Shown here: positions 5,055-62,924 of the stretch, piece by piece
Layout: each line of letters starts with the position of its first letter
How positions within the stretch are numbered: position 1 is the first letter of the stretch
Source: Blastocatellia bacterium
Lineage (GTDB): Bacteria > Acidobacteriota > Blastocatellia > UBA7656
NCBI GenBank assembly: GCA_045807765.1
Contig: JBJMGU010000011.1
Location: 25,398 to 89,397 of the forward strand
Direction: 5' to 3'
Length of the DNA: 64,000 nt
Notes under the pieces: generated by a model
What the model saw: only the letters and a program-made list of their open reading frames with translations
Told to the model about the DNA's origin: nothing
Databases searched by the model: none
Translations under genes and position numbers: made by a program

Positions 5055-5167
5055 ATGATGAACGATGAATGATGGATGATGAATTAAGAGAGGAAACGGC
5101 AGGGGATTGTCTATAGATAATCCGGCTTCCGCTTCCTCTTCCGTTCATCATTCATCATTCATCATTA
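5055..5167. repeat. Hairpin element, family A, copy A1 (more divergent)
   Basis: Left arm aatgatgaacgatgaatgatggatgatgaattaag begins 1 nt after the TAA stop of the FG-GAP gene. Right arm is ccgttcatcattcatcattcatcatt. Confidence 0.75.
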
Positions 5168-5175
5168 GCTTTCAG

Positions 5176-5204
5176 TTGACAGTATGGGAAGCGATGTGTA
5201 GGAT
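5176..5204 (+). promoter_or_regulatory. Putative sigma-70 promoter of cspA (-35 TTGACA, 17-bp spacer, -10 TAGGAT), giving a 5' UTR of about 150 nt
   Basis: The hexamers were read directly. Cold-shock genes typically have a long 5' UTR. Confidence 0.4.
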
Positions 5205-5351
5205 GTGCGAGTTTTGATTCGCAGTAGTGTGAGGAGGACTGAAGTGGAAGTTAAGGTTTTGCGCGTTTGGCAGTTTGACCGCAGACGCTCTTTGCTTTAG
5301 CTCCGATCATCCACGCTGCAACTCACTTCAGATGAAAAGGAGAAGAAAGCA

Positions 5352-5561
5352 TTGAGAGAATTAGGTACAGTTAAGTGGTTCAACGCGACAAAAGGGTATG
5401 GGTTCATCACGCGCTCGACGGGCGACGACGTCTTCGTCCACTATTCGGCGATCCAGGCCGATGGCTACAAGACGCTGAACGAAGGCCAGCAGGTCGAGTT
5501 CACGCTCATTGAAGGCCCCAAGGGCCTGGCGGCGCAGAACGTCACCGCTAGCGCTAGTTAA
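5352..5561 (+). CDS. cspA: Cold-shock protein, CspA family (TTG start)
   Basis: 69 aa with RNP motifs ([20 protein letters not shown]). SD AAAGGAGAAG lies upstream. Confidence 0.9.
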
Positions 5562-5576
5562 TCGATAAAATTTGGG

Positions 5577-5612
5577 GCGAGTCCGGGCGCATCGGACTCG
5601 CCTTTATCTTTT
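5577..5612 (+). terminator. Rho-independent terminator after cspA
   Basis: Hairpin GGCGAGTCCG-ggcgcat-CGGACTCGCC followed by TTTATCTTTT. Confidence 0.6.
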
Positions 5613-5725
5613 CCCTCCCACACCACCCGCATGCACGCAACACCCCGCCACGGCTGCTCATCCCCTCACTGATTGTGATAGACTTGTGGAGCGTTCAATC
5701 AGCAACCAACAAGGGGAGAGAATCG

Positions 5726-59784: not shown

Positions 59785-59806
59785 GGTCTGCCCTCGCCGA
59801 GAATTT

Positions 59807-60268
59807 GCCACAAAGGCACCAAGGCACAAAGATTCACAAAGATTCACATGATGAATCTTCTGATGCCGCTCTTAATGAAAGTCACTCTGAAGTTGATAAG
59901 AAAACCCAACCGTTTACCGGTGAGTTTAAGGTGACTGAGTACTTGCGCTTCCCAAACTGGATTGACTTGTTCAACGGCCTTCAATTCGCAGATAACCAGA
60001 TCATCTACTAGGACATCTAGCCGAAGCCCTTCGTTGAAAACGATCCCATCGTAAACAATCGGTATATCAACTTGTCTTTTGTATGGCAGTCCGCGCTTGC
60101 TCAATTCATGACAAAAGCATATTTCGTAAACCTTTTCCAACAAGCCAGGGTCTAGCTGCTTATGGACTGTATAAGCCGCCCCCACAATCGCTTTGCCGAC
60201 GTCTTCTTCTTGATGGGATAAAGGTATAAATCCCATAGTGATTCTTTGTGCCTTTGTGTCTTTGTGGC
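59807..60268. repeat. Hairpin element, family E, copy E2, whose about 390-bp loop is exactly the GxxExxY gene
   Basis: Left arm gccacaaaggcaccaaggcacaaagattcacaaagattcaca (59807-59848). Right arm tgattctttgtgcctttgtgtctttgtggc (60239-60268) is its imperfect reverse complement. The interior is AT-richer than the flanks. Confidence 0.75.
59844..60236 (-). CDS. GxxExxY protein (PD-(D/E)XK nuclease-like small protein family)
   Basis: 130 aa: MGFIPLSHQEEDVGKAIVGAAYTVHKQLDPGLLEKVYEICFCHELSKRGLPYKRQVDIPIVYDGIVFNEGLRLDVLVDDLVICELKAV... It contains the eponymous G-x-x-E-x-x-Y (GLLEKVY) and a D...(D/E)xK-like core. The ORF track extends the N-terminus to 60341 through the repeat arm. Confidence 0.7.
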   Translation of the reverse strand: MGFIPLSHQEEDVGKAIVGAAYTVHKQLDPGLLEKVYEICFCHELSKRGLPYKRQVDIPIVYDGIVFNEGLRLDVLVDDLVICELKAVEQVNPVWEAQVLSHLKLTGKRLGFLINFRVTFIKSGIRRFIM

Positions 60269-60276
60269 AAGCTGTT

Positions 60277-61587
60277 TTACAGCGCCGCGAACGCGCCGTC
60301 GAGCGCCGTGACCAGCTCGTCAATATCCGCTTTGCTCGCAATCAACGGCGGCCCCAGGCGGATGACGTTGCCGTAAAGGCCGCCCTTGCCAATCAGCACG
60401 CCGCGCCGCCGCGTTTCTTCAAAGACACGCACTACCGATTCGGCGTCAGGCTGTTTGGTCGTGCGGTCTTTGACGCATTCAATCGCCTGCATCAAGCCCA
60501 TGCCGCGCACATCGCCAATCACCTGATACTTGTCTTTCAGCTCTTCGAGCCGTGCGCGCAAGTAGCCGCCGACTTCGCGGGCGTTGCGCGGCAGGTCGTT
60601 CTCTTCGATGACGCGGATCGTCGCCAGCGCCGCCGCCGCTGTCACAGGGTTGCCGCCAAAAGTCGAAAACGTCAGCGACGGGTACTTGTCGGCGATCTCC
60701 GACAGCGCCGTCGTGCAGCCGATGGGCGAGCCGTTCGCCATGCCTTTGGCAAAGGTCATCACTTCGGGCTCGACTTCCCAATGCTCGATGCCGCACCAGT
60801 GATCGCCTGTGCGTCCCCAGCCGGTCTGCACTTCGTCGCAGATGTAGATGCCGCCGTAACGGCGAACGATTTCAGTGACCACTTTGAAATAATCTTTCGG
60901 CGGCGTGATGAAGCCGCCGACTCCCATGATCGGCTCGGCGATGAAGGCGGCGATCTCTCCCGTTGTCGAAGTCTGAATCAGCTCTTCGACATCGCGGGCG
61001 CATTCCAGGGCGCACGATTCGGGATTGAGGTTGAACGGGCAGCGATAACAATAAGGCGCATGGGCATGGACGATGCCGGGGACCAGCGACGGCCCGTGCT
61101 TCCACGTCGAATGCCCGGTCGCCGTCATGTTCATCACCGAGCGCCCGTGATAGGCGTGGCGCAGGGCGATGATTTCGGTGCGCCCGGTGTAGAGCCGCGC
61201 CAGCACCATCGCGGTCTCGTCGGCTTCGGTGCCGCTGCTGGTGAAGAAGCTCTTCTGCAAGCGGCCCGGCGTAATCTCGGCCACTTTCGCGGCCAGATCG
61301 GCTTGCGGGCGGTTGATGTAGAGCGTCGAGGTATGAGCGATGGCGCCGGCCTGACGGCTGATGGCTTCGACGACTTCCGGGCGCGCGTGGCCGACCGATG
61401 TCGTCAACACGCCGCCAAAGCAGTCGAGGTAGCGGTTGCCTTCGGTATCCCAGACCTGCATGCCTTCGCCGCGTTCGAGCGCGATTGGCTCTTTATAATA
61501 AGTCGCAGCGCAGGGCCAGATGTACTCTTTCTGTTTGGCAACGAGGTCGTCGGTTGCAGGTTGCGTCGTCGGATTTTGTGCGGCCAT
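60277..61587 (-). CDS. Class-III PLP-dependent aminotransferase (beta-alanine/omega-amino acid--pyruvate transaminase-like, AGXT2-like)
   Basis: 436 aa with the PLP-lysine region TFAKGMANGSP and conserved DEVQTGWGRTG. Confidence 0.85.
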   Translation of the reverse strand: MAAQNPTTQPATDDLVAKQKEYIWPCAATYYKEPIALERGEGMQVWDTEGNRYLDCFGGVLTTSVGHARPEVVEAISRQAGAIAHTSTLYINRPQADLAAKVAEITPGRLQKSFFTSSGTEADETAMVLARLYTGRTEIIALRHAYHGRSVMNMTATGHSTWKHGPSLVPGIVHAHAPYCYRCPFNLNPESCALECARDVEELIQTSTTGEIAAFIAEPIMGVGGFITPPKDYFKVVTEIVRRYGGIYICDEVQTGWGRTGDHWCGIEHWEVEPEVMTFAKGMANGSPIGCTTALSEIADKYPSLTFSTFGGNPVTAAAALATIRVIEENDLPRNAREVGGYLRARLEELKDKYQVIGDVRGMGLMQAIECVKDRTTKQPDAESVVRVFEETRRRGVLIGKGGLYGNVIRLGPPLIASKADIDELVTALDGAFAAL

Positions 61588-61669
61588 CGAATCCTCCAGT
61601 CTGATGATTAATGCGATATGTGAAAGCGCGATTATTTAACTACAGGCGATGGCAGGCGTCAATCTAGGG

Positions 61670-62824
61670 CTAGACCTTGTTGGCCTTCAGCTCGGCGAGC
61701 GAGTAATGCGTATCGCGCCAGTTGATGCCGTCATTCTGTATCGTCTTGCGCGTCGCGTTCCACATCAGGTAGAGGAACAGCAAAACCGCAAAAGGGAAGA
61801 GCAGGGCATACCGGCGGCGCGCGCCGACCAGCCGCGCGCCGCGCGCGTAGCCCGCCATCACGATCAACACAGAGGCCAGGTTCAGCCACCGCGTCGCGCC
61901 ATGCGTCACAAACACGCCGATGAAAGGCCAGAGGAACCAGACGAGTTGCAGCAGCGCCCCACCCGCCACGAGCGCCAGGCTGTATTCAAGCCCCGCGAAG
62001 AAATTCTTCTCCGTGCCGGCAATCAGCTCGCGCACGGATGCGTACCATTCGACAGAGATCATGCCGACGCCATGCAACACCTCTTGCCGGTAGCCGCTCT
62101 GCTTAAGCACCTTGCCGAGCTTCATGTCGTCATCAGGCCGCATGCGAATCTTTTGATGACCGCCGATCTGACGATAGGCTTCCGCCCGCACCAGATTGAA
62201 TGCGCCAATGCCGATGAAGCGCGAGCTGCGCGGGTCCGCCGCCTTCCAGGGTTTCGCGAAAAGCGCAAAGAACAGGCCGAAGACGCCGAGAAAAGCATTC
62301 AACATCACGCCCGGCATATGTCCTTCCGGCCCCATCGTAATGTGGTCGCGGCGTTCGCGCTCGGCATAGCTCACGGCTCGCCGGATCGCCGTCGGATGCA
62401 TGATGATGTCCGCATCGGTGAATAGAAGAAAGTCGCCCGTCGCCTGCCGCGCCGCGAAGTCGAGCGCGTGATTCTTGCCGAGCCAGCCCGGCGGCAGCTC
62501 CGTGATGTGCAGCGGGCGCAGCCGCACGTTGCGTGCGGCCATGCGGTCGAGGATGCCGCCCGTCTCGTCGGTCGAGCGGTCGTCGGCGACAATGACTTCG
62601 AGCGGGGAGTAATCTTGATTGAGCACTGACTGCAAGGCTTCTTCGATGTGGCGGGCCTCGTTGCGGGCGGCGATGACGACAGAGACGCGCGGCCAGACCG
62701 TTTGTTCGAGCGATGCGATATCTTTAAGTGAACGGATGCGCCGGTTGCCCTGCCATAGATCGATGGTCATGAGGACGTAAGCTACGACCGTGACGGCGGC
62801 GAGATAGAACAGAAATTTTCCCAT
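61670..62824 (-). CDS. Family 2 glycosyltransferase (membrane-associated)
   Basis: GT2 motifs VSVVIAARNEARHIEEALQSVLNQDY, DDRSTDET and DADIIMHP, with C-terminal TM helices. The start is at MGKFLFYL; the ORF-track extension to 62908 is read-through of repeat A3. Coordinates +/-1. Confidence 0.8.
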   Translation of the reverse strand: MGKFLFYLAAVTVVAYVLMTIDLWQGNRRIRSLKDIASLEQTVWPRVSVVIAARNEARHIEEALQSVLNQDYSPLEVIVADDRSTDETGGILDRMAARNVRLRPLHITELPPGWLGKNHALDFAARQATGDFLLFTDADIIMHPTAIRRAVSYAERERRDHITMGPEGHMPGVMLNAFLGVFGLFFALFAKPWKAADPRSSRFIGIGAFNLVRAEAYRQIGGHQKIRMRPDDDMKLGKVLKQSGYRQEVLHGVGMISVEWYASVRELIAGTEKNFFAGLEYSLALVAGGALLQLVWFLWPFIGVFVTHGATRWLNLASVLIVMAGYARGARLVGARRRYALLFPFAVLLFLYLMWNATRKTIQNDGINWRDTHYSLAELKANKV

Positions 62825-62825
62825 G

Positions 62826-62924
62826 AAATGATGAACGATGAATGATGAATGATGAATGAAGGAGAAGCCACCGGGCTGCAATGGGCGCAAGCTCCGGCAG
62901 TTCATCATTCATCATTCATCATTT
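62826..62924. repeat. Hairpin element, family A, copy A3 (reverse orientation relative to A2)
   Basis: aaatgatgaacgatgaatgatgaatgatgaatgaaggagaagccaccgggctgcaatgggcgcaagctccggcagttcatcattcatcattcatcatt. The loop is about 85% identical to the reverse complement of the A2 loop. Coordinates +/-1. Confidence 0.85.

Follow-up and report, generated by a model that had tools for sequence, protein, structure and literature searches.

The window, i.e. the whole 64-kb stretch of DNA analysed, belongs to the genome of a soil acidobacterium of the Blastocatellia (Acidobacteriota), with 62% GC, and homologues of its aminotransferase and CorC with 97-98% identity were identified in Blastocatellia MAGs. ADOP permeases are among the proteins encoded. 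The window contains 26 tandem arrays, with 8 inverted array pairs, whereas its dinucleotide shuffles (n=30) averaged 3.8 arrays and gave no inverted pair. The pairs were called by TRF and our own pairing of arrays, element D being taken from sequence and fold. The initial annotation had listed ten elements of one tandem-repeat architecture, (unit)n-loop-(reverse-complement unit)n; nine are real and the tenth has no tandem units. All nine are intergenic, as proposed, although 91% of the window is coding. Their folds gave z values of -4.7 to -11.1 against shuffled sequences, with none of 200 shuffles equally stable. The hairpins are of two kinds, families A to D (7/8-mers) and family E, which corresponds to the ends of a gene cassette and is not, as first assumed, a fifth family of the same kind.

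Family A comprises A1, A2 and A3. A1 (5054-5166, arrays 5054-5084 and 5144-5166) has about 4.4 AATGATG units, a 59-nt loop forming a nested hairpin in itself with a (GCTTCC)3 array, and about 3.3 CATCATT units; it folds at -58.2 kcal/mol (z -9.0) and the TAA stop of gene 2751-5054 merges into its first unit. A3 (62826-62924, arrays 62827-62859 and 62901-62923, z -7.1) is formed by 4.7 AATGATG units, a 41-nt loop and 3.3 CATCATT units. It constitutes the entire spacer between the aldehyde dehydrogenase and glycosyltransferase genes, with the TGA of the former within the arm and the ATG of the latter 2 nt off it. A2 (46985-47080, arrays 46985-47007 and 47050-47077, z -6.8) conserves 3.3 AATGATG units of the left arm, a 42-nt loop and 4 CATCATT-type units in the right arm. 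The outer part of the left arm (AAAATGATGAAT) is detached: it occupies 45908-45919 and precedes by 2 nt the true start codon of the 7TMR-HD gene (ATG at 45906, minus strand). The arm is split by an IS5-family insertion sequence (45920-46984, minus strand) with terminal inverted repeats AGACCTCGTGCGCAGTAAG and CTTATTGCGCACGAGGTCT and a DDE_Tnp_4 transposase at 45980-46957 (PF13359, E 5.6e-33). The target duplication was probably AAT, and removal of the insertion sequence with one AAT copy brings back the exact 7-nt period.

Family B comprises two elements whose unit is the 7-mer GTAGGCA and not an 8-mer as originally described. B1 (7286-7393, arrays 7286-7308 and 7363-7393, z -7.6) is formed by (GTAGGCA)3.3, a 54-nt loop and (TGCCTAC)4.4; its left arm holds ...K-G-R-Q-TAG, and gene 6319-7296 has its final three codons and its TAG there. 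B2 (29196-29434, arrays 29196-29218 and 29379-29434) has unequal arms, (CAGTAGG)3.4 and (ACTGCCT)8, a 160-nt loop and the most negative z (-11.1, -124.4 kcal/mol). Genes on both sides are convergent and the right arm contains the TAG of the 29429 gene. The loop carries nested palindromes (29232-29371 and 29276-29327), with similar ones in L207, and nested hairpins were found in B2, A1, L044 and L076. Family C is a single element (13823-13917, arrays 13823-13857 and 13892-13917) of (GACGCGGG/C)4.4, a 34-nt loop and (CCCCGCGT)3.2, folding at -82.8 kcal/mol (z -9.2). It begins 8 nt past the stop of gene 11206-13815, with gltX 69 nt beyond its end, and its unit also forms a hairpin at L204:16514-16614. 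Family D (43043-43125, arrays 43043-43072 and 43105-43122, z -4.7) is located on the minus strand between ybeY and corC, whose products were identified as YbeY and CorC, and comprises GGGGCTG, GGGATTA, GGGACTA and GGGGCTA heptamers plus their complement; the arm codes for the final five ybeY residues and the TAG. The arm-encoded stops announced for B1, D and B2 could be read from the sequence, likewise that of A3. The proposed location at gene 3' ends does not hold for A2, which is at the 7TMR-HD start.

The tenth listed element (17216-17358) is a long imperfect palindrome in which TRF identified no array. It takes up exactly the space left by glnS and the ADOP permease gene, which are convergent, has an A-run at the left and a T-run at the right (fold z -7.1), and resembles a bidirectional intrinsic terminator, outside the tandem-repeat class. 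The nine hairpins could also be read as transcription terminators, perhaps of a U-tract-free form used in the phylum, a reading consistent with this neighbour, with their highly stable stems, with a stop codon not more than 10 nt before most of them and with the convergent genes flanking B2 and the L204 hairpin. We regard it as highly improbable, since no T-run follows any of the nine and since D, A2, A3 and the E2 cassette lie within conserved co-directional strings (phoH-7TMR-HD-ybeY-corC-era and ALDH-GT-aminotransferase-amidohydrolase), where complete termination would shut off the downstream genes. This agrees with the initial opinion, given for at least family A, that the elements are not coincidental terminators.

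Dispersal was evident for part of the elements. A2 and A3, annotated as about 90% identical in opposite orientation, share 89% identity across arms and loop (about 80% in the loops alone), and an A1-like copy (arms and loop, 88% identical) is present at an unrelated locus of another Blastocatellia genome (L116:1136-1248). The search for empty sites suggested by the annotation was positive: in relatives with an aminotransferase 86-97% identical, A3 (L120-L123) and E2 are missing from the corresponding spacers. A3 is a lineage-specific insertion, and comparison with the relatives indicates that the ancestral spacer was replaced whole, not interrupted. All five families might accordingly be MITE- or REPIN-like elements moved by a transposase encoded elsewhere, with shared positions as insertion hot-spots. 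The variable presence of A3 and E2, the loop common to A2 and A3, the A1-like copy and the AATGATG unit in many phyla are in its favor, and the aminotransferase-amidohydrolase spacer of L121, with another palindromic element, suggests that some spacers may indeed be hot-spots. We nevertheless consider it unlikely, given the whole replacement of the A3 spacer and the unequal copy number of arms such as those of B2 (3 vs 8 units), which points to local slippage. Neither target-site duplications nor a window transposase with matching ends were seen.

The D and A2 junctions also argue against it, and for them the proposed mobility did not hold. In all relatives examined, to a CorC identity as low as 73%, both junctions are occupied by a tandem-repeat hairpin whose repeat word differs in small steps in both arms. 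The units found upstream of the 7TMR-HD start codon are ATGATGA (window and L208), ATGAGYG (L207), RTGCTGA (L209), GTGGYCA (L204) and GTTGTCA (L206); in the ybeY tail they are GGGGCTA, GAGGCTR and GGGGCCR, and the position of D is kept in L205-L209 with different units. At both junctions the units are connected by steps of 1-2 nt, a pattern more readily explained by descent with modification than by six insertions occurring independently. Arms from the same genome pair much better than arms from mixed genomes (-42.9 vs -17.2 and -53.7 vs -38.9 kcal/mol). Since the junctions are occupied in each of these relatives while the word drifts in both arms, they point to long residence with turnover in place. 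The right arm is missing at ybeY-corC in L204, and such losses in some relatives imply that the hairpins are dispensable at least sometimes. Co-evolution of the arms could also come from mutation bias (quasi-palindrome correction) without selection.

A scan with (ATGATGA)3 identified at least 119 loci in many phyla. Those listed contained at least 69 array pairs in inverted orientation, representing dozens of other units. Period 7 was dominant among the arrays, but the 119 loci had been selected with a heptamer. In 42 of 72 hairpins an ORF of 100 aa or more had its stop inside an arm or not more than 15 nt from it. Of 42 distinct unit families, 38 had a 5' arm richer in G than in C (p = 6e-8), and the AATGATG arm leads in 36 of 38 A-type hairpins. 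Families A to D span exactly from the stop codon to the following start codon, with the G-rich arm first whichever strand is read and often providing the stop codon. Convergent flanking genes exceeded divergent ones (10 vs 3). The folding of both strands, which the annotation had recommended, confirmed the stability of the stems and gave an even result between sense and antisense (8 vs 7 of 15).

This lack of strand asymmetry, the decay or loss of arms in L204 and L208, the great diversity of units and the different array length of the two arms would all suit a neutral by-product, in which slippage builds arrays in the scarce non-coding DNA and palindrome-correcting template switching maintains the partner, with no function. 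Such an origin seems quite unlikely in view of the strict stop-to-start placement, the G-rich-first polarity, the excess of convergent flanks and the prolonged occupation of the two junctions, as well as of the reduced flanking variability with the same placement reported for Xanthomonas by Rehm et al. (PMC4692102).

Contrary to the initial annotation, which recognised no described family, heptamer arrays in convergent inverted pairs have been published for Xanthomonas and Nostoc; in them the sense strand carries the G-rich array, which lies at the stop codon or covers it, and spacers separating aligned ORFs are preferred (PMC4692102). The placement and polarity found here agree with that report. 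Heptamer arrays in general are known from cyanobacteria, Beggiatoaceae and Bacteroidetes (PMC4679880). As inverted short-tandem-repeat arrays, families A to D are similar to the Xanthomonas GGGAATC arrays and the cyanobacterial STRR, and match a little-studied but previously reported repeat class. The family E cassette appears to be undescribed in the literature searched.

Family E has an 8-nt unit, CAC-N-AAG-N (CACNAAGN), where a period of 9 had been given, with ends GCCAC / GTGGC. E2 (arrays 59809-59831 and 60244-60266) had been taken for a small hairpin; its right arm is about 395 nt off, and what passed for a loop is a gene of 130 codons. The arm on the amidohydrolase side (59807-59848, GCCACAAAGGCACCAAGGCACAAAGATTCACAAAGATTCACA) is, when read along the gene's minus strand, the one after the stop codon, and that on the aminotransferase side (60243-60268, TCTTTGTGCCTTTGTGTCTTTGTGGC), read as GCCACAAAGACACAAAGGCACAAAGA on the gene strand, is immediately upstream of the ATG. 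The space between them is occupied by a GxxExxY gene (59844-60236, minus strand, 130 aa, Pfam PDDEXK_3), a TIGR04256 member (134.6 bits, cut-off 35) with 44% GC against 62% in the genome. Homologues with ~75% identity count in thousands and reach distant phyla; E34, D74, E84 and K86 are invariant among them and, by our own assignment, would be the expected PD-(D/E)XK active-site residues. The gene shows saturation at synonymous sites (pS 0.79) and an omega of about 0.07-0.18, indicating purifying selection. E1 (37539-37611, arrays 37539-37568 and 37587-37611) is a gene-less or 'solo' copy in which the arms, GCCAC-NAAG-NCAC-NAAG... / ...CTTNGTGNCTTNGTGGC, enclose a loop of 18 nt. It is found downstream of the minus-strand AMP-binding gene 37645-38943, at a distance of 34 nt.

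Nearly all of 80 metagenome loci (about 75 distinct, from unrelated environments) have GCCAC(NAAGNCAC)n arms around the GxxExxY gene, an association that holds for the subfamily of the window gene only, since the loci were picked for similarity to it; a divergent GxxExxY in L139 presents direct CACGAAT arrays in place of E arms. The flank inverted-repeat score had a median of 16 at the loci and 7.5 at 884 control positions. Constant positions of the arms are paired in 90-100%, the two free positions per unit near chance level, and G-U pairs (59) are in no real excess over A-C mismatches (43). Because this excess is missing and folds are equal on both strands, RNA is not singled out over DNA as the level of pairing. 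With synonymous sites saturated, the conserved arm motif must be under constraint. Copy size is bimodal (42 gene-carrying, 13 solos and 1 intermediate), and cassettes share the orientation of their neighbours (50:6 upstream, 48:3 downstream). A mobile cassette is the likeliest nature of family E, which travels with its gene across phyla.

Other small genes were identified between arrays of other units: the four-helix-bundle TIGR02436, VapC, the DhiT/DhiA toxin-antitoxin pair and a second GxxExxY type. GxxExxY could for this reason be a passenger and not the driver, the arrays being recombination sites, likened to integron attC hairpins, of an enzyme encoded elsewhere that captures small selfish genes. 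The cassettes in succession at some loci, promoter-less and co-oriented with neighbours as integron cassettes are, also speak for this possibility, which we hold to be doubtful: the arm motif is bound to one gene subfamily, the nuclease motif is intact and under strong purifying selection, and no integrase adjoins the window E2 copy.

The explanation in two parts, inverted-repeat hairpins in families A to D and a gene cassette in family E, is considered reasonably probable as a whole. In families A to D replication slippage would carry a variant unit through one array, and the second arm would catch up via arm-to-arm templated correction or selection for pairing. Complete hairpins, arms and loop, would now and then be copied into other spacers, though neither an enzyme nor a target duplication was identified for such copying in the A type. 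Both parts also acquire foreign DNA (nested hairpins, an insertion sequence, small palindromes). The hairpins would most probably serve as intercistronic or 3'-end stem-loops, and also as landing pads for insertions. Rather than classical terminators, they would be stable stem-loops marking cistron boundaries in the polycistronic transcript, with 3'-end protection or processing similar to that of REP elements. The arms of family E would not be slippage products; they would be inverted arrays of a sequence-specific motif bracketing the GxxExxY gene, and gene and arms would act in many phyla as a single cassette, inserted between co-directional genes in sense orientation, with solo hairpins such as E1 as derivatives. 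The motif arrays may be recognition sites, probably for the encoded putative nuclease, and this recognition would underlie the spread of the cassette.

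Nine of the ten places inspected in the window are, on reading of the sequence, pairs of inverted tandem arrays, and the initial annotation, which had listed ten hairpins of this build, was largely right as an observation. An array is taken here as a head-to-tail unit of 6-9 nt in at least about 2.5 copies. Both arms were found by TRF in 8 of the 9 hairpins and each array was linked to its reverse-complement partner by a pairing script; the second arm of hairpin D is short and was identified by eye from the sequence. All arms of A1-A3, B1-B2, C, E1 and E2 gave in TRF a period of 7 or 8 with 2.9-8 copies. 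The letters stand for families of repeat unit: the heptamer AATGATG in A, the heptamer GTAGGCA in B (described at first as an 8-mer, the period being 7), the octamer GACGCGGG in C, the heptamer GGGGCTA and its variants in D and the octamer CACNAAGN in E. The hairpins fold with z values of -4.7 to -11.1, none of 200 shuffles being equally stable. The window contains 26 short-period arrays and 8 inverted pairs, against a mean of 3.8 arrays and no pair in 30 dinucleotide-preserving shuffles of it, and all nine hairpins are intergenic although the coding share is 91%. An Rfam scan of the whole window at gathering thresholds gave no matches.

The tenth place, 17216-17358, contains no tandem units and was wrongly grouped with the tandem-repeat hairpins. 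It comprises a 143-nt imperfect palindrome, as seen in sequence and fold, which occupies the whole spacer between glnS and the ADOP-permease gene, a convergent pair. Bordered by an A-run at one end and by a T-run at the opposite end, it looks like a bidirectional intrinsic terminator. Four ADOP-family duplicated permease genes of about 920-960 aa each are adjacent at 17359-29189 (17359-20205, 20202-23078, 23144-25981 and 26433-29189, of which the last alone was scanned against family models).

The gene layout was obtained from protein-family scans of the window proteins, some ORFs excepted. A1 begins within the TAA of gene 2751-5054, and gene 6319-7296 ends within B1, which contains its final three codons (G-R-Q) and its TAG. 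C follows a stop by 8 nt and precedes gltX by 69 nt, B2 separates two convergent genes and carries the TAG of the 29429 gene in the right arm, and D, in the ybeY/corC spacer, encodes the final five YbeY residues and the stop. A3 makes up the whole aldehyde-dehydrogenase/glycosyltransferase spacer: one of its arms includes the TGA, and the other is separated from the ATG by 2 nt. E1 (37539-37611) is found 34 nt beyond the stop of an AMP-binding-enzyme gene. A stop codon is inside an arm or starts at most 10 nt away in A1, B1, C, B2, D, E2 and A3. A2, initially placed at a gene 3' end like the others, is located at the 5' end of the 7TMR-HD gene. Flanking genes were co-directional in 15 cases, convergent in 10 and divergent in 3. 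In the wider survey of loci described below, the stop of an ORF of at least 100 residues was inside an arm or within 15 nt of one in 42 of 72 hairpins.

Terminators working without a U-tract are one possible explanation of this placement at gene ends. Intrinsic terminators consist of a G+C-rich stem directly followed by a U-run, a pattern that the tandem-repeat hairpins lack: no T-run follows any of the nine on either strand, both having been checked in the sequence, and flanking A- and T-runs are found at 17216-17358 only. Since A-D are without U-tracts and lie inside operons, they are not classical terminators. The fold energies of 15 co-directional hairpins favoured the sense strand in 8 and the antisense strand in 7, with no strand bias.

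The left arm of A2 contains a 1,065-bp IS5-family element (45920-46984) with a DDE_Tnp_4 transposase and 19-bp terminal inverted repeats. The perfect 7-nt period returns to the arm once the IS and one AAT copy are removed, so the intact arm began 2 nt upstream of the real 7TMR-HD start, the ATG at 45906; the mechanical ORF (43547-45979) extends into the IS. Three ORF starts or ends in the window are artefacts of arms or of the IS, and gene calls are distorted by hairpins in this way. Public gene calls in relatives also cross hairpins (L204:16164-18086 across L204:16514-16614; L209:7049-9460 across L209:7022-7098), and the called starts are probably too far upstream.

The hairpins also mark breaks of synteny. 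In five loci of Blastocatellia relatives (L204, L206, L207, L208 and L209) phoH immediately precedes the hairpin, which is followed by the 7TMR-HD gene. It is absent from the window, where A2 is followed by about 600 nt (47081-47675) without a convincing gene (the sole ORF, 47073-47222, has 49 aa) and then by a divergent ECF sigma-factor gene; the break therefore falls exactly at A2. The second break involves B2 and E1. Orthologues of the ADOP-permease and AMP-binding genes are convergent neighbours in L204, with one AGTCAGR heptamer hairpin between them (L204:19392-19530), whereas in the window the permease gene (26433-29189) and the AMP-binding gene (37645-38943) are separated by 8.4 kb (29190-37645) with four genes, including one for a CHAT/TPR protein, and this segment has B2 at one edge and E1 at the other. 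The PhoH proteins of the relatives are of two sizes: about 690 aa with a LAGLIDADG_3 match (L204:4974-7049, L208:4949-7042 and L209:4961-7015) and 327 aa (L206:6013-6996 and L207:6045-7028). The long form looks like one with an intein confined to some lineages.

The window is assigned to Blastocatellia by the homologues of its aminotransferase and CorC. The comparison with relatives comprises ten loci, nine of them distinct (L123 duplicates L122), with an aminotransferase or CorC 73-98% identical to that of the window. The aldehyde-dehydrogenase/glycosyltransferase spacer, filled by A3 in the window, has an unrelated 57 nt in the closest relative (L120) and 17-28 nt in two others; the first arm unit of A3 coincides with the ancestral AAATGA stop. 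The aminotransferase/amidohydrolase spacer has 492 nt in the window, where it contains E2, 62 nt in L120, 17 nt in L122/L123 and 280 nt with a different palindromic element in L121. Insertion polymorphism is thus present for A3 and E2, both lineage-specific and absent from their spacers in these relatives. No direct duplication flanks either one when compared with the empty sites of the relatives.

The hairpins at the 7TMR-HD and ybeY sites behave differently. The gene order of the relatives is phoH, 7TMR-HD, ybeY, corC and era, and every relative covering the site has a tandem-heptamer hairpin just 5' of the 7TMR-HD start, its second arm abutting the ATG. The unit is ATGATGA in the window and L208, ATGAGYG in L207, RTGCTGA in L209, GTGGCCA or GTGGTCA in L204 and GTTGTCA in L206; these units can be linked in series through changes of one or two bases each. 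At the 3' end of ybeY the first arm is always within the coding tail and provides the stop; the unit is of the GGGGCTA type in the window, GAGGCTR in L207 and L209, GGGGCCR in L205 and degenerate in L206 and L208, the YbeY tails varying in step with it. The second arm is lost in L204. Pairing is much stronger between arms of one genome than between arms of two genomes (7TMR-HD site, -42.9 kcal/mol within and -17.2 kcal/mol between genomes; ybeY site, -53.7 and -38.9 kcal/mol). Conserved position and better pairing within genomes indicate that the hairpins at these two sites are old residents whose arms change together.

A less likely reading is that all hairpin families are mobile elements; the polymorphism of A3 and E2 speaks for it and these old residents against it. 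Copying of hairpins is also found, as judged from sequence likeness: A2 and A3 are 89% identical, most of the loop included, and another Blastocatellia genome has at an unrelated locus an element that resembles A1 (88% identity overall) and shares its 59-nt nested loop. Fifteen such hairpins were identified in 176 kb of relatives, among them A-type and C-type units at other loci. The interpretation in the initial annotation is thus partly right: insertion or copying is supported for A3, E2 and the A2/A3 pair, but A-D, not recognised there as a described family, fall in a class already known.

The distribution of the architecture was obtained from an exact scan for three AATGATG-type units in one genome per bacterial species, which gave at least 119 loci. 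These belong to Acidobacteriota, Planctomycetota, Chloroflexota, Verrucomicrobiota, Nitrospirota, Cyanobacteria, Bacteroidota (Saprospiraceae, Spirosoma and Chryseobacterium) and others. Within the loci listed there are 69 inverted tandem-array pairs with dozens of other units, such as GGGGATTA, TGAGTTAG, CACAGAGGA and GGATTTT; the architecture is thus general and the word free. Hairpins nested in the loops of other hairpins are common, B2 being an example. Three A-type pairs whose arms are 199-241 nt apart (L029, L031 and L089) were considered as carriers of genes and rejected, as their ORFs only read through the repeats.

Two further kinds of repeat were observed. These Blastocatellia genomes contain small palindromes (GCTCC-TACGG-AGC, GTCCC-TAYGG-GAC or GCCC-TGAAGG-GC) strung into long nested palindromic elements, located in the B2 loop (29232-29371) and in long spacers of relatives (L207:15346-15904 and L121:11312-11591). 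In an Aminicenantes MAG (L041:1356-2742) five tandem arrays follow a fixed order, CACGAATT.., CACAGATT.., CTYACCCT, CTCTTCCG and TTCATCA; this composite module is present three times, whole or partial, and its first two copies flank an antitoxin/VapC pair.

The arms have a polarity. G exceeds C in the arm read first (5') in 38 of 42 distinct unit families (p = 6e-8), and the AATGATG arm comes first in 36 of 38 A-family hairpins. As a hairpin reads alike on both strands, the polarity is a property of the element itself. The exception is family E, with a C-rich 5' arm. Stop triplets in the 5' arm were considered as the cause; outside family A they gave only 9 against 3, many G-rich units have no stop triplets, and they account at most for part of the polarity.

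On sequence grounds, hairpins A-D are members of a known, poorly studied class, the convergent heptamer arrays of Xanthomonas and Nostoc. The Xanthomonas unit GGGAATC forms 70-75 convergent pairs per genome, one array per strand and capable of a stem-loop, and the Nostoc unit is GGGGA(C/T)T (Rehm et al. 2015, PMC4692102). On the sense strand the Xanthomonas G-rich array overlaps a stop or is within 50 bp of one, and on the antisense strand it shortly precedes ORFs; pairs are favoured between aligned ORFs and rare between divergent ones, and the repeat type is kept at the same locus in two species with varying length (PMC4692102). A-D share with these pairs the intergenic 7-nt units, a G-rich sense array located at the stop or across it and a bias towards aligned ORFs, and D (GGGGCTA/GGGACTA) is near the Xanthomonas and Nostoc units even in sequence. 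Tandem arrays, a convergent inverted partner and a position from a stop to the next ORF are all found in the window, with E as the exception in polarity. One G-rich unit per genome, read as quadruplex-forming, is described in PMC4692102, whereas in the window at least four unrelated units coexist, most of them unable to form quadruplexes (AATGATG, GTAGGCA). Unit replacement at an orthologous site, shared loops, nesting and gene cargo are found here and are not known to be reported in PMC4692102.

STRR-type arrays also comprise several intergenic heptamer families per genome, near start and stop codons and with nested small elements, and their patchy distribution across phyla was met here too (Cyanobacteria, Bacteroidota). 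Cyanobacterial STRR heptamers and long simple-sequence repeats were reportedly described by Mazel in 1990 and Mrazek in 2007, and small elements embedded in heptamer arrays are said to have been described by Elhai in 2008. TAACTGA repeats occur in Beggiatoaceae, Cyanobacteria and Bacteroidetes (PMC4679880). Unlike those of the window, STRR-type arrays are mostly direct, MacGregor having one inverted set among 170 (PMC4679880); no consistent hairpin architecture is described for them, and Acidobacteria are not among the groups covered.

REP/BIME elements and REPINs with their RAYT transposase are extragenic palindromes in many copies, located at gene ends or between cistrons (PMC3116915, PMC3733652). 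REPs are thought to stabilise the upstream mRNA and are known targets of IS, as A2 is of the IS5-family element. A REP is however a single palindrome of 20-40 bp, conserved family-wide and with a GTAG or CGTC head, whereas the hairpins of the window have tandem arms of short units differing between families and between orthologous sites. GTAG in B and CGTC in C are within every repeated unit rather than in a single head. No RAYT gene was identified among the proteins scanned in the 64 kb. By their features A-D are neither REPs nor MITEs nor intrinsic terminators.

In the most likely reading of A-D the arrays would grow and homogenise through slippage, the partner arm following by hairpin-templated correction or by selection for pairing. 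The stem-loops would then act in the transcript at cistron boundaries, in 3'-end protection or processing, by analogy with what has been proposed for REP. A less likely reading is that the hairpins are a neutral by-product of slippage. A position that is kept while the word is replaced in both arms is a natural experiment setting structure selection against palindrome-correcting mutation.

Family E is of a different kind. E2 (59807-60268) was taken at first for a small hairpin, but its partner arm is about 395 nt away and a 130-codon gene is between the arms on the minus strand (59844-60236). The product belongs to the GxxExxY family (TIGR04256; score 134.6 bits, cut-off 35, E 1.9e-39, with an alignment over 114 of 116 profile positions), and its homologues carry PF13366 (PDDEXK_3), an entry that gives "function unknown" and multiple transfers. 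There are thousands of homologues, with about 75% identity, in groups as remote as WOR-3, Desulfobacterales, Cloacimonadota and Marinimicrobia, many of them on very short contigs, as hairpins break assemblies. Invariant in an alignment of 28 sequences are G31-x-x-E34-x-x-Y37, D74 and E84-x-K86, of which E34, D74 and E84-x-K86 are the residues expected of a PD-(D/E)XK nuclease. Secondary structure was predicted as ααβββββαβ, in a model with low confidence (pLDDT 61) whose best structure matches, which are weak, were restriction endonucleases, Cas4 and Hjc. A profile of the alignment gave no solved relative by sequence. The literature searched, with limited access, contains no description of a GxxExxY cassette, the family name being met in passing.

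The link of gene and arms was examined in metagenomes, since a phmmer search with the window protein in the ORFs of the at least 119 heptamer-selected loci identified only the window copy. A metagenome scan with the GxxExxY alignment gave 80 loci. The flank score rates the strongest inverted repeat that pairs the 150 nt preceding the gene with the 150 nt following it. Its median was 16, against 7.5 at 884 control positions, and 39 of 76 loci reached at least 16, against 0.1% of controls. Nearly every copy has GCCAC-N-AAG-N-CAC-N-AAG-N... before the gene and the mirror image, with a GTGGC end, after it, exactly as in the window's E arms. Across 43 non-redundant copies, pairing amounts to 90-100% at the constant positions, and the two free positions of each unit are Watson-Crick at 10-45%, near chance level. 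The gene is saturated at synonymous sites (pS 0.79; omega about 0.07-0.18), so the conserved arm letters are held by selection on sequence, beyond pairing alone. Wobble pairs in the arms (59 G-U against 43 A-C) show no strand bias.

The spacing of the outer anchors falls in two groups, 351-560 nt with the gene (n=42) and at most 120 nt (n=13), with a single case in between. The gene-less E1 is a short form, and two Blastocatellia relatives carry other short forms at different loci. The cassette mostly shares the direction of the adjacent genes (50:6 upstream, 48:3 downstream) and is probably transcribed from the host operon; the GC of the window copy is 44%, against 62% for the genome. A second E-type hairpin or cassette is beside the first in L131, L133, L137, L139, L140, L142, L157, L170, L173, L175 and L188, and cassettes can thus form short tandem series.

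Several known systems resemble the cassette in part. The pairing of non-autonomous REPINs with autonomous RAYTs resembles that of E1 and E2, although REPs are mobilised by an HUH tyrosine transposase whose gene is outside the repeat and the E protein is a predicted PD-(D/E)XK protein encoded between the arms. With MITEs and their parent IS, E shares terminal inverted repeats, short gene-less and long gene-carrying copies and presence/absence polymorphism. However, E2, A3 and the metagenome copies show no target-site duplication, and the only IS of the window has ends unrelated to the hairpins. MITE parents encode a DDE or serine/tyrosine transposase and not a 130-aa protein of predicted nuclease fold, and each E end repeats an 8-nt motif that has free positions, unlike MITE ends. 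In the 23S rRNA intervening sequences a long stem carries a small ORF in its loop, and the four-helix-bundle family TIGR02436 was first named after them. Both they and E are small, multi-copy, horizontally spread genes in a long-stem loop of a host transcript, in the same phyla, and L136 has a four-helix-bundle gene fragment beside 8-mer arrays. The host of E is however an mRNA operon and not rRNA, RNase III excision is only a candidate for E, and the E arms pair poorly at every fourth position, unlike the stems of the intervening sequences.

The GxxExxY gene could also be a passenger in an integron-like system. Other small genes are found between arrays of other units (the four-helix-bundle fragment, a second GxxExxY type, a VapC toxin and a DhiT/DhiA pair). 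An integron cassette would have an IntI integrase with attI in the vicinity and an attC marked by R''-L''/L'-R' boxes and extrahelical bases. The arms can be set beside attC by description, as an analogy only, and no integrase was identified beside the window cassette among the proteins scanned. In the more likely reading the E motif arrays would be recognition sites, most simply for the encoded putative nuclease, and the gene and arms would move as one unit, since the empty sites of the relatives lack the E arms. It is tentatively proposed, as a possibility on which we would not yet rely, that the cassette is an autonomous mobile element of a hitherto unrecognised type, whose 130-residue PD-(D/E)XK nuclease recognises its own inverted CAC-N-AAG-N arrays, moves across many phyla and leaves gene-less, non-autonomous solos. 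By extension, other hairpin families and small multi-copy genes, such as the four-helix-bundle "23S IVS" genes, may share a hairpin-based system.

To the known class these results add its presence in Acidobacteria, several non-G-quadruplex units within one genome, the generality of the polarity rule and unit replacement at orthologous sites. In several large phyla heptamer and octamer arrays rank with the most over-represented repeats, and they are described as hardly characterised (PMC4692102). A single construction rule (G-rich arm first, stop in the arm, intercistronic gap filled) spans dozens of unrelated words and several phyla. The part most worth following up is the tie between a repeat family and GxxExxY, a widespread family with a predicted nuclease fold, for whose role and spread it provides a concrete hypothesis.
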